Part shown: positions 3,713-42,994 of the stretch, piece by piece
How the letters are laid out: each line of letters opens with the position of its first letter
How positions within the stretch are numbered: position 1 is the first letter of the stretch
Source of the DNA: a virus
Length of the DNA: 64,000 nt
Direction: 5' to 3' (one strand)
IMG/VR virus record: IMGVR_UViG_3300034198_012226
Coordinates: 22,482 to 86,481 of that record
Translations under genes and position numbers: made by a program
The notes under the pieces: model-generated
Database searches by the model: none
The model's input: the letters and a program-made list of their open reading frames with translations, nothing else
What the model was told of the DNA's origin: nothing

Positions 3713-6147
3713 GAATTGTCGCCAAGAATCTGGCGAAAAGCGCCAGCATCGTGGCCACCAGCGAGGTGGGCAACATGCTCGCCTCGAACCTGAAGAAGCC
3801 CTCCAAGAACTCGGTCTGGCGTGCCTCGGGCAAGCTGGCCACCTTGACCCTGTCCTGGGGGGCCGCTGTCGTCCTGAGCGCCCTGGCACTGCCACACTGC
3901 AACCTGTCGCCGACCGCACAGATGCGCGTGCGCGCCACGACCGAGGTCTCGACCACCAACCTACTGCCCAACAGCGACGGGCCGGTCTGGACTTCGCCAG
4001 CGTTCGGTGGCGTCGGCGACGCCCCAGGCTTCGGCTATTTCGCCCAGTCGATCCAGTTCCCGTCTACCAAGAGCGTTGACCTGTACCTGTACAGGAACGC
4101 CACTATCGCGGTCGGAACTTCGGCCACCTTCTCCTGCTTCGTGAAAATGGACGACGGCACCGCGCCGGTCGTTGGCTACAGCAACACCACGGGCGATTTC
4201 CGCATCGTGGTGGCCAACTCCGCGATCACCAGCAGCACGCTGGTCACGATCCAGAACCTGGGCGGCGGTGTCTACAGGGTCACCGGAACCCTGGCCAGCG
4301 GTAACGGCGCAAGTTCCAACTTCGGCATCGTCACCTATGCAACCCAGAGCGGCAAGGCTTTCCGCGTCACCGGCTACCAACTCGAATACGGCACGGTGGC
4401 CACGAGCTACTACCCGTCGAATGACACCTTCACGTCACGCTCGGGCAACGCCACCTATATCGGCGACGATGGCCTGATCAAGACCGCTGCAACCGGCGTG
4501 GCCCGTATGCAGTACGCACCGTTCGACATGGCAGCGCCGCCGCACCTGTTGCTGGAGGATGCTGCCTCGAACTTCACGCGAGGCTCTGCCACCTTGACCA
4601 CCGCGCACTCCTGGACGCACAGCGGCGTGACAGTCGCTGCCGCGACCGGCAAGTTCTATCGTGGCCTCCAGTACCAGAAGATCAGCAAGACCACGACGGC
4701 GGCAGCACAGTCGGCCCGCAGCAATGCGGTGACCACCTCCGCTGGTGCCACGCTGACCTCGTCGTTCGCCATCCGAGCCGACGCTGCGACCAGCGCGGAC
4801 TTCGGCCAATACGACAACACTGCTGCCACCTTCGGCACCGCCGCAGAGAGCATCGCTGCCATCGTTGAAGGCCCCGGCACCATCACGACCGTCCAGGCTG
4901 GTCTGTTCCGGATCAGCGGCCTGTCGGCGACCGAGGACACCATCGTCCAATGCACCAGCTTCTACCCAGTGAACTCCTCGGTCACCCTGAACATCTACCC
5001 AGGCAGCAGCGTCTCGGTGTCGGCTACCGACTCCGTCCTGGTGACCCGTGTGCAGACCGAGTACGGTGCCAAGTTCGATGGCACCGACCTGGTCACCAAC
5101 GGTGCATTCACCACAGACTTGACCGGCTGGACGCTGACGCAGCCTACTGGCGGCACGGTGACCTGGAGTTCGGGTACGGCCTCCCTGGTCAGCGACGGCG
5201 TCGGTATCCCGATCATCGACCGCAGCATTACAACCGTGGCGAACCGGACGTACACCTTGACCTTCTCGTCCACGACGAGTGCGCTCCAGGCATCGGTCGG
5301 CACCACGGCGCGTGCGACGAACCTGGCGAACTTGGCCAACTCCATCGTCGGCAACAACACGCTGACCTTCACGGCCACCGGCACCACGACCTATCTGTCG
5401 TTCCGCAAACCGGCAGCGGGTACCTCTGTCCTGGACAACGTCGTGGTCAAGGCTCACGCCCTGGTGCCGTTCGTGACCTCATACATCGCCACGACGACGG
5501 CCACCGGCACCAGGAACCGTGACGCGCATACCACAGCCCTGGGCACCCGTCCCGAGGGCTACATGGACACCTGGCAGAACTACGGAGTGGACACCGGCTG
5601 GCAGACGGCGTGCGCTGCCCCTGGCATCACCCCGGAAGGTATGGACGACATCGTGGGTGCCAGCGCCTACGCCTACGGTGGAGGCAACACGGCGCGGGCA
5701 TGGTTCCCGCCAGTGGCGGTGAAGGGCGTGTCGGTTTCGATCAGCGATCCGGACAACGTGCAGGGTTATGTGGAAGCGGCGATGCTGGTGGTGGGGGAAT
5801 ATTGGTCTCCGGCCAGGAATCCGTCGTGGGGGAACGGCCTCACTCCGATTGATCGGAGCAAGAACACGGTGACGGAAGGCGGGACACTGAAGTCTGACCG
5901 GAGAACACGGTCGAAGAAGTTGTCCGTGAACTTGAACAACATGGAGGAGGCTGATCGGTCGTACATGGCTGACCTGCTGCTGCGGTGTGGCATCACCGAG
6001 CCGATCTTCTTCTGCCTGTTCCCCGAGTCGGACGACCCGAAGCTGGAGCAGCACTACACGATCATGGGCAAGGTTTCCACCTTGTCAGCAATGACGATGC
6101 CTTATTGGAATGCTGCCAACTCACCACTTGAGCTGGAGCAAGTCTGA
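3697..6147 (+). CDS. Virion tail protein with inserted carbohydrate-binding/spike-like modules
   Basis: 816 aa, Thr/Ala-rich beta modules; FTSRSGNATY..DG.I.TAA.GVAR...LLLE motif typical of phage spike/fibre proteins. Confidence 0.7.
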   Translation: MAARLRIVAKNLAKSASIVATSEVGNMLASNLKKPSKNSVWRASGKLATLTLSWGAAVVLSALALPHCNLSPTAQMRVRATTEVSTTNLLPNSDGPVWTSPAFGGVGDAPGFGYFAQSIQFPSTKSVDLYLYRNATIAVGTSATFSCFVKMDDGTAPVVGYSNTTGDFRIVVANSAITSSTLVTIQNLGGGVYRVTGTLASGNGASSNFGIVTYATQSGKAFRVTGYQLEYGTVATSYYPSNDTFTSRSGNATYIGDDGLIKTAATGVARMQYAPFDMAAPPHLLLEDAASNFTRGSATLTTAHSWTHSGVTVAAATGKFYRGLQYQKISKTTTAAAQSARSNAVTTSAGATLTSSFAIRADAATSADFGQYDNTAATFGTAAESIAAIVEGPGTITTVQAGLFRISGLSATEDTIVQCTSFYPVNSSVTLNIYPGSSVSVSATDSVLVTRVQTEYGAKFDGTDLVTNGAFTTDLTGWTLTQPTGGTVTWSSGTASLVSDGVGIPIIDRSITTVANRTYTLTFSSTTSALQASVGTTARATNLANLANSIVGNNTLTFTATGTTTYLSFRKPAAGTSVLDNVVVKAHALVPFVTSYIATTTATGTRNRDAHTTALGTRPEGYMDTWQNYGVDTGWQTACAAPGITPEGMDDIVGASAYAYGGGNTARAWFPPVAVKGVSVSISDPDNVQGYVEAAMLVVGEYWSPARNPSWGNGLTPIDRSKNTVTEGGTLKSDRRTRSKKLSVNLNNMEEADRSYMADLLLRCGITEPIFFCLFPESDDPKLEQHYTIMGKVSTLSAMTMPYWNAANSPLELEQV

Positions 6148-11454: not shown

Positions 11455-12006
11455 ACCTTATGGTGAAGCTATTCCGCTTCGCTCGGTTTGCTACCTGGGT
11501 CAAGACCTGGAAGTTATTCCACACACATGAAGTCCGCAGACGAGGTCTCCACGAAGTGGTATGACATGATCCACCTCCCAGGGTTCGCCAGTCAGCACCT
11601 CAAGCCGAATAGCTAGGTCACAGGCTTCGTAGAATACAAGGTCAGTCAACTCGGACGACCAAGGCATCACGGCCCGCTTCCTGGCGGCTCGCCGCTTGGA
11701 GCTATACCTGCGAACAGCGTCGGGATTTTCCCGCTTATATCGCCTACAGGTCTCACGGTGGGCTTCCTTCTGCTCGACCGTTGCAGACGACTTGTACCTG
11801 TTCCGGATAGCCGCTGACTTCTCTGGGTTCTCCTGTGCCCAACGAACCCTGCGGGCGGTCTCATGAACCTTATTTTCCTGGGCCTTGGCAGACCGGCGAA
11901 GCCTGGCGCAAGGTTTGCAGGCACTGCTATACCCACTGCTCTGGCTCTTGTCCACGTAGAACGACTCGAAGGGTAGAACCTGCTTGCAGGCATAGCAGTT
12001 TTTCAC
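11453..12006 (-). pseudogene. HNH homing endonuclease with a 2-nt frameshift near the C-terminus
   Basis: CxxC zinc knuckles and WEVDHVIPLRG..VCGLHV; the expected continuation WNNFQVLTQVANRAKRNSF lies in another frame after CATGTGTGTGG. Confidence 0.75.
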
Positions 12007-12008
12007 GA

Positions 12009-12209
12009 TTAGCTCGCTTCCTGTGGATCGGTGGGCAGCGGCTCCAATTGATCCGGCCCGTAGATGTGCAGTAGCCCCGCAGGCTCGTCCATCTCGAAGA
12101 CGTACCGCTCAAACCCTTTCAGGGTCGTGAACACGCCGACGATGGTGCCGTGGCACTGGTAACTGCCGCCGACCTTCTGGACGCGGTCTCGATCTTTAAA
12201 CTTAGGCAC
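12009..12209 (-). CDS. DfrB/R67-like (type II DHFR, SH3-fold) protein
   Basis: F..DRV.K.GG...G.IVG..TT....RY..E....G.LHIY...LE aligns by eye with the R67 DHFR core; overlaps the thyA stop. Confidence 0.65.
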   Translation of the reverse strand: MPKFKDRDRVQKVGGSYQCHGTIVGVFTTLKGFERYVFEMDEPAGLLHIYGPDQLEPLPTDPQEAS

Positions 12210-13167
12210 TAGGAATCTCCTTGTTGGTAACGGTTGTGGCCATCGGCACCTTGTCCGACTTGAGCCGGTATGGATTATAGCCGTCCAGGACGATCAGGCT
12301 GTGATCGACAGCGGCCAGGCCATTGGCATCGACACCGTACAAGTCCTGCCCCAGGAACAGATGGGGGAAGGGCTTCTCCTCTTTGGTGACGGCGATGTCG
12401 AGCTGCTCCTGCACGGCATCGAACGCCTTGTTGTAGATGTGAGTGTCGTCCAGGTGGTGCGTCAGCCAGCGCGGTTTCAGGCCGGTCGCCGCCGCCACCA
12501 GGTGGAGCAGCAGCGCCGCCCCGGCGATATTCATCGGCACACCCAGGAACATGTCCGACGACCGCTGGTAGAACGACATGTTCAGCTCACCGGCAGCGAC
12601 GTTGACCTGGAAGCGGTATAAGACGTGGCAAGGTGGCAGACACATCTCGGCGAAATGGTCAGGGCGCCAGGCCGAGAGCACGATGCGGCGGCTGTACGGG
12701 TCGTTGCGGATCATGTCCAGGACAACTTGCACCTGGTCGATGCTCTCGTCAACCACCGTGAACAGCGGCTCGTCTGCCGTGTTCTCGTACTCGTGGAGGG
12801 TATGAGCCTCCCAGTGCCTCCACTGGTAACCGTACGCCTTGCCCATGTCGCCAGGGCCTTTGCGGTGCGGGCTGGCCAGCCAGTCGGCATTGCCGTTGGC
12901 GTCCTTCTCCCACCACTTGCAGCCGATGGCAGCGAAGTCGGCGCTGTTGGTGTAGCCGCGCAGGAAGCCGACGATCTCGCCACGGATGCCGGGGAAGTAC
13001 AGCTCTTTCGACCACGGTGCCGGGAAGCCGTTGTTCATGTCGAAGCGCATGATCGAGCCGTAGGGCAAGGTCAGTGCCCACTGGTCGGTGCGGTTGTCCT
13101 GGCGGTAGCCGGTGGCCATGACCTCGCCCAGGAGCATGTGGTATTGGTGCATGGAAGTGTCAAGCAT
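12202..13167 (-). CDS. thyA: Thymidylate synthase
   Basis: YGYQWR, PYSRR, LPPCH, YQRSSDMFLGVPMN and HIY motifs; ATG 13167 with GGAG RBS. Confidence 0.95.
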   Translation of the reverse strand: MLDTSMHQYHMLLGEVMATGYRQDNRTDQWALTLPYGSIMRFDMNNGFPAPWSKELYFPGIRGEIVGFLRGYTNSADFAAIGCKWWEKDANGNADWLASPHRKGPGDMGKAYGYQWRHWEAHTLHEYENTADEPLFTVVDESIDQVQVVLDMIRNDPYSRRIVLSAWRPDHFAEMCLPPCHVLYRFQVNVAAGELNMSFYQRSSDMFLGVPMNIAGAALLLHLVAAATGLKPRWLTHHLDDTHIYNKAFDAVQEQLDIAVTKEEKPFPHLFLGQDLYGVDANGLAAVDHSLIVLDGYNPYRLKSDKVPMATTVTNKEIPSA

Positions 13168-13714
13168 TGAAGTCTCCAGTGAGTGTAGGGAGTTGGATAT
13201 GGGTCCTGGTACCCCGGCAGGAGTTCCAGGTGTTCTTGGTGCCGCCTTCAGCAGGGACGATACCCGAGGCGAACGTGTAGGCAAGCAACTGCTCACACGC
13301 TGCCACCTTGGCGTTGCGGGCGAACATGCCGCTGTGGCCGCGCCGAAGTGGCTCCATCGTGACCGCAGCACCGCCACAGATCGCCGCAACGATGTCCGCG
13401 AAGGTGTTTCGGCTGATGGTCCGGCTGAACCGGATATGGTAGTAGTTCGAGATGGAACCTGCCGAAGGCCCGCCTCCGGCCTCCTCGAACTTGTGGGTGA
13501 ATGGTGCGGGCAGGTGCAGTGCCAGGCGGGAGGCGTGGCCACGCAGGTACAGCTCCACCGCGAGGTGGTCTGCCCAGGCCGCACCGCCCGACACAAGGTG
13601 AGACCCTACAGGGACACGGGCGACGGCGTCAGCCACCATCCAGTCCCAGAGGGCGCGGGTCATCGGCTTGGTCTTGTCGCGGCCAGCCGTCCCGATGATA
13701 GCGATGCGATCCAT
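13160..13714 (-). CDS. SLOG/YspA-like nucleotide-binding protein
   Basis: IAIIGTAGR, LVSGGAAWADH, ARN and GGT motifs. Confidence 0.65.
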   Translation of the reverse strand: MDRIAIIGTAGRDKTKPMTRALWDWMVADAVARVPVGSHLVSGGAAWADHLAVELYLRGHASRLALHLPAPFTHKFEEAGGGPSAGSISNYYHIRFSRTISRNTFADIVAAICGGAAVTMEPLRRGHSGMFARNAKVAACEQLLAYTFASGIVPAEGGTKNTWNSCRGTRTHIQLPTLTGDFNA

Positions 13715-41985: not shown

Positions 41986-42296
41986 CCCTGCCCCCCATTA
42001 TGTTGCCAGCCATGGTATTTGGCTTCGATGTGCCCCTCAAACAGAGCAATGAAAATGTACTCGTCGGTGTCGAGCTGCATCCGGCGCATGAAGTCCTTCC
42101 CCAGTTCCCTCTGGTCGGCCTCCAGCACCTGCTGCTTCGCCGCCTTGACGGCCTCCTCGTAGCCCGTGGCCTTGACGTGTGCGATGTAGCTGTCGGTCTC
42201 AGGCTCGCCGTCCCACTCCGGGATGTCGGCGAACCTGTACGAGCGCATCAGCACCACCGTGTAAGGCAAGGGCAGCTTCGTCACGCTGCCGCTCAT
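41982..42296 (-). CDS. Hypothetical protein
   Basis: ATGA-coupled on both sides. Confidence 0.6.
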   Translation of the reverse strand: MSGSVTKLPLPYTVVLMRSYRFADIPEWDGEPETDSYIAHVKATGYEEAVKAAKQQVLEADQRELGKDFMRRMQLDTDEYIFIALFEGHIEAKYHGWQHNGGQG

Positions 42297-42994
42297 GGCC
42301 GCATCCTTTCACCCTTCATGAAGCCGACCCAACGGGCAGCAGCTTCCTTGTTCTTGAACCTGGCGTGCGGATCACCGCTGCCGTCGATATGCACCGCGGC
42401 CTTCAGGCCGTTCACGTCGCATGGCTTGATCTCGTAGTCGCGCTCCCAGTAGCTCGGGTGGCGGTAGAGTTCCATGCCGGTGTTGGTCATGATCCGGATC
42501 ACGAAACGATCCAGCACCCCGCCGCCACCGTGGTCTCCCGGCACGACCAGGAGGGGAATCTTGAAGATGCCGGACGAGCGACCGATGCGGCCGTACACGT
42601 CGTTCTCCTCCGGCCACGGACGGCCATAGCCAGGCTTCTCCGGGTCGGTGTTGCCGTACCAGATGCGGACGATGCCTTTGCCCTGGATCAGGCGATCCAG
42701 CACCGTCTTGACCTTCTCGTCGGTGTGGATGCTGTACCAGGTCGGCAAGTTGATCCGGTTGTCGCTGATGTACTTGATCAGGTCACGGTAGAACTGGTAC
42801 ATGGCGAGGGTGCCGAAGTGCTCGGGGCCTGGCGCAACAGCTCCGGGAACGAACGGCAGCATCTGAGTCACCTGGTCAGCGACGTACTGGAAGCCAGCGG
42901 TGGTATAGCCGTCGCCGCAGGGGATCACGTAGAGCTTCTGCTCCTCGTTGATGGTGATCTCGGCGATGTCAGGCTTGACGGTTGGAGTGGTCAT
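42293..42994 (-). CDS. Hypothetical protein
   Basis: VRIWYG..GR.W.EE.DV.G.IGRS.G..K.PLL conserved phage pattern. Confidence 0.65.
   Translation of the reverse strand: MTTPTVKPDIAEITINEEQKLYVIPCGDGYTTAGFQYVADQVTQMLPFVPGAVAPGPEHFGTLAMYQFYRDLIKYISDNRINLPTWYSIHTDEKVKTVLDRLIQGKGIVRIWYGNTDPEKPGYGRPWPEENDVYGRIGRSSGIFKIPLLVVPGDHGGGGVLDRFVIRIMTNTGMELYRHPSYWERDYEIKPCDVNGLKAAVHIDGSGDPHARFKNKEAAARWVGFMKGERMRP

Follow-up and report, generated by a model that had tools for sequence, protein, structure and literature searches.

In a 64,000-nucleotide stretch of phage DNA (hereafter the window; bases 22482-86481 of IMG/VR record IMGVR_UViG_3300034198_012226, a virus record of 86,481 bp that is complete by CheckV (100%) and has direct terminal repeats), the stop codon of thyA, the thymidylate synthase gene, is overlapped by an open reading frame (ORF) of 66 amino acids. 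Our analysis suggests, with a probability that we put at about 0.8, that this ORF encodes a phage type-B (R67/DfrB-type) dihydrofolate reductase (DHFR) of the 'LH' branch, equivalent to the cluster II defined by Lemay-St-Denis et al. (Mol Biol Evol 2025;42:msaf215; PMC12486381), and that it recycles the dihydrofolate (DHF) released by ThyA. A phage ThyA plus DfrB-like folate-cycle module had been proposed in an original prediction, and this proposal is supported by homology, by fold and by recurrent linkage to thyA, the reductase being a predicted one.

Homology, fold and key residues of the 66-residue protein

The 66-residue ORF is a real gene under purifying selection. Its orthologue in a sister phage (locus L008) is 86% identical at the amino acid level; the two differ at 32 of 59 codons, 23 of them synonymously and 9 non-synonymously, and the base differences number 8, 4 and 27 at the first, second and third codon positions, respectively. 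In the sister phage, too, the gene overlaps thyA, but there it has an ATG start at the same position and the overlap is 14 nt. The 5' end of its dfrB-like gene (L008 3968-4033) contains a direct tandem duplication of 33 nt in which one residue differs, and this yields two in-frame ATG starts 11 codons apart, and it is the first of these that overlaps the thyA stop.

Judged by profile comparison, the protein is homologous to DfrB. A family alignment of 36 sequences with the window protein first (A3), compared by hhalign with an alignment of 40 PF06442-bearing proteins (A5), gave a probability of 97.3% and an E-value of 2.4e-11 over 63 columns. The window protein scores 53.7 bits on an LH-family hidden Markov model (HMM) built without it and its L008 orthologue, and 29.3 bits on the canonical A5 HMM; its pairwise identity to PF06442-bearing proteins is 43-45% over 55-58 residues. 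In a phmmer search its sequence matches in the PDB were R67 DHFR chains only, the best being the Q67H mutant 2p4t (E 0.058), and a word-based homologue search returned the protein itself and a single relative of 86% identity. PHROGs gave no relevant match. DHFR_2 (PF06442), the Pfam family to which the original prediction had pointed, is the sole Pfam match of the protein (14.8 bits, E 0.027), but the score lies under the gathering score of 25, and the NCBIfam antimicrobial resistance model trim_DfrB (NF000331) gave 16.1 bits against a cut-off of 137. Because these curated thresholds are missed, we regard the protein as a distant member of the superfamily without the status of a clinical-type DfrB allele; by its trim_DfrB score, it is not a clinical-type resistance allele.

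A quick tree of 83 of the 270 domain sequences (3 of the window type, 45 random other LH sequences and 35 random canonical ones) parts canonical from LH-type sequences at 99% in the Shimodaira–Hasegawa-like approximate likelihood ratio test (SH-aLRT), with most forks unresolved. The window type (P0001, P0002 and P0140) forms a long branch inside the LH side; only two relatives of the window lineage came to light, one at 85% identity (P0002) and one at 56% (P0140). A loop of canonical length, described below, and the 29 bits on the canonical profile had given rise to the idea that the window protein is an evolutionary intermediate between the canonical and LH types; this idea was dropped, as the tree places the protein on its long branch within the LH side.

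An AlphaFold2 model of the monomer, built with A3, has five strands, a predicted local distance difference test (pLDDT) score of 91.0 and a predicted template modelling score (pTM) of 0.75. The modelled monomer fold is an SH3-like five-stranded barrel matching R67. In a Foldseek search of the PDB, ranks 1-7 were all R67 DHFR (E 1.2e-3 to 6.8e-3; root mean square deviation (rmsd) 1.7 Å), with target-normalised template modelling (TM) scores of 0.82-0.85 and 33-34% identity, and the next matches were Tudor, CAP-Gly and PWWP domains at 12-14% identity. The model superposes over 57-58 columns on the plasmid type II enzyme R67 DHFR/DfrB1 (PDB 1vie and 2rk1), and the Q67H mutant is the best match in structure as it is in sequence. 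R67 has 78 residues with a disordered N-terminal tail, whereas the window protein has no such tail (profile positions 1-26 unmatched). The predicted relationship to DfrB is thus borne out by profile and by structural comparison. The lack of a profile or structure match to DfrB, or of an association with thyA in other genomes, had been named as grounds for giving up the original prediction; matches of both kinds exist and, as shown below, the association recurs.

K12 of the window protein aligns with K32 of R67 in a HMMER alignment and is invariant in A3, as are V10, G15, Y17, G21, R35, V37, E39, G45, L47, H48 and L55. The substitution of LHIY for the active-site VQIY, also part of the original prediction, holds in the R67 alignment: LHIY falls on the VQIY strand with H at the Q67 position, and the equivalents of I68 and Y69, like that of K32, are kept. 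The natural histidine of the window protein thus equals the engineered Q67H. In R67, Q67H tightens binding, and a natural histidine at this position would fit tight ligand binding.

Among 151 family sequences (P0001-P0151), the K32-equivalent position is lysine in 148, arginine in 2 and a gap in the remaining one. The commonest strand motif is LHIY (58/151), followed by LHVY (36), LHIF (25), LFIF (9) and LHVF (6), with other motifs in 17 sequences. Lemay-St-Denis et al. (2025) reported that, in active homologues, no residue is conserved more highly than K32, for which R is the sole replacement, and that 18 strand motifs of the form nonpolar/polar/nonpolar/aromatic support activity. LHIY has this form, and K12 accords with the K32 conservation of the active homologues in clusters I and II. 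The loop from the conserved E to the conserved G has 5 residues in the window protein, as in 120/120 canonical sequences scored; across the LH sequences it has 3 residues in 126, 5 in 3 and 7 to 9 in 19.

Linkage to thyA in the window and in relatives

The overlap of the 66-residue ORF with the thyA stop was confirmed, and the residues quoted in the original prediction are present. Because the dfrB-like gene, starting at its GTG (12209-12207), overlaps the thyA TAA (12204-12202), 8 nt are common to both genes (Table 1). The layout of a coupled pair is present, with the start of the dfrB-like gene over the thyA stop and a Shine-Dalgarno sequence inside thyA, and this reading of the DNA suggests that the two genes are translationally coupled.

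The thyA product matches Pfam Thymidylat_synt with an E-value of 3.2e-69 over residues 7-300 of the 321-residue form, fitting the ATG at 13167, and PHROG 160 with an E-value of 9e-78. The PPCH motif is found in its translation, and its score on the NCBIfam equivalog TIGR03284, 186.6 bits, is above the cut-off of 108.35; the thymidylate synthase reading was therefore kept, and the candidate of a hydroxymethylase paralogue making no DHF was dropped. The absence of FolA noted for the window extends to the whole phage, as the complete 86,481-bp record has 0 matches to PF00186, the FolA-type DHFR family. No ThyX was found in the whole phage record.

Table 1. The dfrB-like gene, thyA and adjoining features, in window positions
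Feature	Position	Strand	Basis or detail
dfrB-like gene, 66 aa, DfrB superfamily (R67-type, 'LH'/cluster II-like) SH3-fold, putative dihydrofolate reductase	12009..12209	minus	GTG start; LHIY; K12 = K32 equivalent
thyA, thymidylate synthase, 321 aa from ATG at 13167, PPCH catalytic-cysteine motif	12202..13167	minus	PF00303, PHROG 160, TIGR03284
8-nt overlap GTGCCTAA, dfrB-like start codon over thyA stop	12202..12209	minus	direct reading of DNA
AAGGAG Shine-Dalgarno within thyA 3' end, 7 nt ahead of GTG	12217..12222	minus	direct reading of DNA
184-aa gene upstream of thyA, stop overlapping thyA ATG by 8 nt (ATGCTTGA)	13160..13714	minus	SLOG (DprA/YpsA-like) fold by look-alike search only
endonuclease VII/HNH-like gene, 168 aa, start 2 nt past dfrB-like stop	11500..12006	minus	PHROG 1035 E 1.5e-18

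We compared 88 homologue loci, comprising 7 from GenBank phages, L008 and 80 from IMG/VR. They were chosen by two peptide patterns and are redundant (60 distinct domain sequences), and the locus fractions are therefore descriptive only. The association with thyA in other genomes is confirmed by both gene orders and by in-frame fusions, thyA being adjacent or fused in 32/88 loci. It is fused in frame, with no stop codon between, in 4 (L002, L006, L078 and L079); it lies within 350 nt downstream of the dfrB-like gene in 27; and it is directly upstream, as in the window, in 1 (L008). In 4 further loci thyA stands elsewhere in the locus, and it is absent from the flanks in 52. Of the 27 downstream cases, 14 have thyA at a distance of 5 nt, in Kolga-like pelagiphage loci. 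Other frequent neighbours are genes for PRA-PH/MazG-like pyrophosphohydrolases (32 loci), family A DNA polymerase (24), dCMP deaminase (13) and DnaB (13).

The fusion frames stay open for 273-280 residues past the DfrB-like domain, and the fusions in two Rhizobium phages have a TTG start and an AAGGA(A) Shine-Dalgarno sequence. On the evidence of these reading frames, the cultured phages RHEph10 (JX483881; L002 3986-5002) and RHph_N1_10 (MN988505; L006 about 4007-4990) carry a phage-borne DfrB-TS fusion, a type of fusion published in 2025. Their public records annotate thyA alone, from an internal ATG, and leave the DfrB-like domain unannotated. In Pelagibacter phage Kolga (gp36; L003 3713-4165) and in L009-L021, the DfrB-like domain forms the C-terminal third of a protein of about 150-167 residues, whose N-terminal part of about 95 residues has no NCBIfam match; thyA follows 5 nt later.

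At the level of whole genomes, 28 virus records carrying the family were searched. ThyA-family matches were found in 16 (in 7 when the count is confined to the 10 records with a completeness of 90% or more) and ThyX in 1; FolA was found in 0/28, a count that stands without a baseline FolA frequency among ThyA-bearing phages. In 5 records other than that of the window the ThyA-family matches are weak (E 1e-15 to 1e-22) and may be to either a thymidylate synthase or a hydroxymethylase.

In the window, the dfrB-like gene ends a minus-strand DNA-metabolism block, being its last metabolic gene before the HNH gene. The order of the block is exonuclease and DNA polymerase pieces, ribonucleotide reductase, DNA ligase, SbcD, SbcC, the SLOG-like protein, ThyA, the DfrB-like protein and the HNH protein. 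The 184-aa gene before thyA has no Pfam, NCBIfam or useful PHROG match; in a protein atlas its product groups with mostly viral unnamed clusters and is structurally near SLOG-fold DprA/YpsA-like proteins (TM 0.64-0.68). The endonuclease VII/HNH-like gene may be a mobile endonuclease bordering the nucleotide-metabolism block.

Proposed function and its alternatives

A model that joins these data starts from the overlapping gene chain that runs from the SLOG-like gene through thyA to the dfrB-like gene. Ribosomes ending thyA could reinitiate at the overlapping GTG, and synthesis of ThyA and the DfrB-like protein would then go hand in hand. If the protein assembles as R67 does, its SH3-like protomers would join in fours around a central pore; the LHIY strand would line this pore and K12 would lie at its mouth, and the pore would hold NADPH and DHF together. 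The DHF released by ThyA would then be reduced back to tetrahydrofolate, and deoxythymidine monophosphate (dTMP) synthesis during infection would in consequence be independent of the host FolA. Tetramer formation, catalysis and insensitivity to trimethoprim are accordingly properties that we predict for the 66-residue protein.

Several points weigh against a reductase with this role. Besides the missed Pfam and NCBIfam thresholds, the A3 profile compared with the PDB gave R67 Q67H at E 0.0025 and wild-type R67 at E 0.19, and an unrelated IFT144 segment scored E 0.0021 against it, better than R67. The window protein departs from two family near-invariants of A3, with S for D and C for F. Foldseek returned no match at E <= 0.001, the structural E-values being about 1e-3. 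Active DfrB homologues need the tetramer, which is DfrB1-like and has a central tunnel of positive charge, and prediction of such a tetramer matched the measured activity in 139 of 148 cases (Lemay-St-Denis et al., 2025); our model is of a single chain. Among the loci without thyA in their flanks, 44 of the 52 extend for 1.5 kb or more to either side of the gene. Furthermore, both ThyA and ThyX are missing from two complete records with a family member, and another such record has ThyX. In view of these loci and records, the family is not always tied to ThyA. The ThyX case is a complete 58.7-kb phage (G022, the record of L086) with an LH-type member (42268-42636; LHIF) and ThyX but no ThyA, and it falls outside the explanation by folate recycling. 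The absence of FolA from the 28 records is weakened by the missing baseline. Host FolA could also recycle DHF, so the phage gene is not strictly needed. Finally, Lemay-St-Denis et al. (2025) favour a primary binding role for the DfrB domain.

One alternative is that the SH3-like protein has no catalytic function and acts as a module for assembly or for binding (of nucleotides, DNA or ThyA, for example), like the inactive clusters III-V, in which case the linkage to thyA would be structural or regulatory. We consider this unlikely. The same authors propose binding as the principal role of the domain, with catalysis promiscuous, and found 25/25 tested homologues that were not predicted to tetramerise to be inactive; against this, the cluster II enzymes that they assayed as active include ones with LHIY and with the related LHIF, and the window protein lies on the LH side of the 99% SH-aLRT split, away from the canonical side. 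The nearest structural matches after R67 are binding domains (Tudor, chromo and PWWP), but the K32-equivalent lysine, present in 148/151 family sequences, speaks against a module of this kind. Genomic context points both ways. More than half of the homologue loci (52/88) have no adjacent thyA, some family genes adjoin terminase genes, and one complete phage combines the family with ThyX; on the other hand, four in-frame ThyA fusions together with the FolA-less records indicate the folate cycle.

Alternatively, the protein could be a reductase that is active but has a different pterin or folate-like compound, and not DHF, as its natural substrate. The pore of these enzymes is wide, has little specificity and tolerates many strand motifs (Lemay-St-Denis et al., 2025), and some family members are fused to, or stand beside, domains of a nucleotide-modification type (DUF1599, nucleoside 2-deoxyribosyltransferase-like, MazG/PRA-PH and dCMP deaminase). 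Yet every expressed cluster I/II member assayed in that study reduced DHF in vivo (114/123), and the tightest recurring partner is ThyA, whose by-product is DHF, which leaves a different natural substrate very improbable. It might also be argued that the ORF is spurious, open by chance or misannotated where thyA ends, since it is short, has a GTG start and lies in a high-GC window with many spurious ORFs of like length, but the third-position bias of its divergence from the L008 orthologue, the strong Shine-Dalgarno sequence ahead of the GTG, the confidence of the monomer model and the size of the family matched by its profile (see below) effectively refute this idea. A DHFR that recycles the DHF of ThyA thus remains our preferred reading.

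Family size, relation to published DfrB work and significance

The family came into view only with a tblastn search and a pattern scan. The tblastn search, of 50,697 phage records, returned 11 records at E <= 10, of which 10 are at E <= 0.01 and one, at E = 5, is noise. The matches include one canonical DfrB, in MW202697, annotated as 'R67 dihydrofolate reductase' (DHFR_2 E 2.7e-22). A pattern scan of IMG/VR gave 125 relatives, of which the best 80 were kept. In all, 14 GenBank phage records were matched, MW202697 being the canonical one, and among the 13 non-canonical records, including the match at E = 5 (H11, a record without annotation), 0 carry a reductase annotation. With the family profile, 2,372 representative clusters (50% identity) were matched at E <= 0.001, and 829 when the threshold was tightened to E <= 1e-10. 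In a Pfam scan of 86 longer family representatives, 0 were named (DHFR_2 at E <= 0.001). By these profile matches, the LH branch is far larger than the published set (2,372 clusters versus 386 homologues). Contigs of pelagiphage-like, Rhizobium-phage and 200-300-kb phage types share a DfrB-like domain with strong conservation. Standard annotation (Pfam, NCBIfam, GenBank) misses the gene.

Some members of the family have unusual architectures. P0003 (149 aa), P0005 (300 aa) and P0009 (192 aa) each have two tandem DfrB-like domains in one polypeptide, each domain at E <= 1e-15, and the copies carry differing strand motifs; P0003 may be N-terminally truncated. Such proteins may be what the engineered tandem R67 constructs look like in nature, in which case their pore would be asymmetric; neither 'tandem' nor 'duplicat' appears in the main text of PMC12486381. 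DUF1599 is present in one family representative, and a nucleoside 2-deoxyribosyltransferase-like domain in another. In MW202697 (L001 4001-4207), the canonical DfrB (SVQIY-type) has an ORF annotated as DNA polymerase on each side, a layout that suggests a fragmented polymerase gene with the reductase gene lodged between its parts.

The pairing of a DHFR with ThyA for dTMP synthesis has a precedent in frd-td of phage T4, where the reductase is FolA-type, of a different fold and non-homologous. The DHFR-TS enzymes of protozoa and plants, a comparison drawn by Lemay-St-Denis et al. (2025), show the same pairing and again have a FolA-type, non-homologous reductase of another fold. R67 itself is a resistance cassette of integrons and plasmids, whereas the window gene belongs to a phage-borne dTMP module, has LHIY in place of VQIY and falls below the Pfam and NCBIfam thresholds.

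The closest known systems are the viral cluster II homologues. Lemay-St-Denis et al. (2025) described 386 DfrB homologues, 20 of them viral and 19 of these in Caudoviricetes. The four viral cluster II homologues all have ThyA close by, in one case at a distance of 5 bp, and come from genomes that lack FolA; 3/4 tested as active. Like the window protein, these homologues (for example A0A6J5PTB3, with LHIF) have a small SH3 fold, a K32-equivalent lysine and an L-H-[IV]-[YF] motif, and are encoded in Caudoviricetes genomes with ThyA and without FolA. The window differs in its gene order, thyA before the dfrB-like gene with an 8-nt overlap, the reverse order being found in 27/28 adjacent unfused homologue loci.

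The same study reported fusions to nucleoside triphosphate (NTP) pyrophosphohydrolases and bifunctional DfrB-TS (bit-GEM BBD027md-00173_03685), in which a DfrB domain with LHIY, as in the window, is paired with a ThyA-family synthase. Both activities of DfrB-TS were measured (Km for DHF 28 µM, kcat 2.3 s-1), and it assembles as tetramer and octamer. Table 1 of that article lists A0A6J5PTB3 and DfrB-TS as trimethoprim-resistant tetramers, the cluster II enzymes in it having Km values of roughly 10 to 200 µM and a kcat near 1 s-1, and NADPH substrate inhibition was seen for the LHIF enzyme. DfrB-TS is one polypeptide whereas the window has two separate overlapping genes; true fusions are found in RHEph10, RHph_N1_10, L078 and L079.

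The cultured lytic Vibrio phage vB_ValP-R39Z (Microb Genom 2026, PMC13749740) is described as also having a nucleotide-metabolism module with an R67-family DHFR, ThyA and ribonucleotide reductase, and a tetramer of the reductase was predicted by AlphaFold-Multimer. Its genes are far apart (ORF7 and ORF57) and its reductase was recognised by PHROGs/DRAM-v, whereas the window gene is left unnamed by standard libraries. A 2025 survey (PMC12466917) found 8 dfrB-type genes among 1,961 dfr candidates in lytic phages; identity to known DfrBs was used, so the survey would miss the LH branch.

The concept, the activity, the linkage to thyA and the fusion were thus published in 2025 (Lemay-St-Denis et al., 2025), and the window gene is one more example. 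The possibility that such loci are a native context of the dfrB family, raised in the original prediction, is reasonable and was already argued in that article. Since the concept is in print, the value of our work is in better annotation and an estimate of family size rather than in discovery; what it adds are that estimate, the annotation gap, the reverse gene order with an 8-nt overlap and the canonical loop length.

A broader proposal, which we put forward tentatively, as somewhat less than an even chance, is that DHF reduction for phage dTMP synthesis is the primary selected function of the family and no promiscuous side activity of a binding domain, the view of Lemay-St-Denis et al. (2025), that the LH branch is large and mostly unannotated, and that phages are a possible reservoir of DfrB. 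It is based on the 2,372 clusters, on the silence of Pfam on the 86 representatives, on the strong conservation of the domain, on the linkage to thyA in both orders and as fusions, and on the lack of FolA in the 28 records. If this is true, the window lineage, in which thyA comes first, the genes overlap by 8 nt and the loop has the canonical length, would be an independent instance of the linkage to thyA. Trimethoprim insensitivity was seen in every published assay of expressed cluster I/II members (Lemay-St-Denis et al., 2025), and the abundance of so insensitive a family in phages therefore bears on surveys of environmental resistance determinants. For the phage itself, the locus shows how a virus with ThyA and without FolA can close its own folate cycle with an enzyme of 66 residues, given the activity predicted here.

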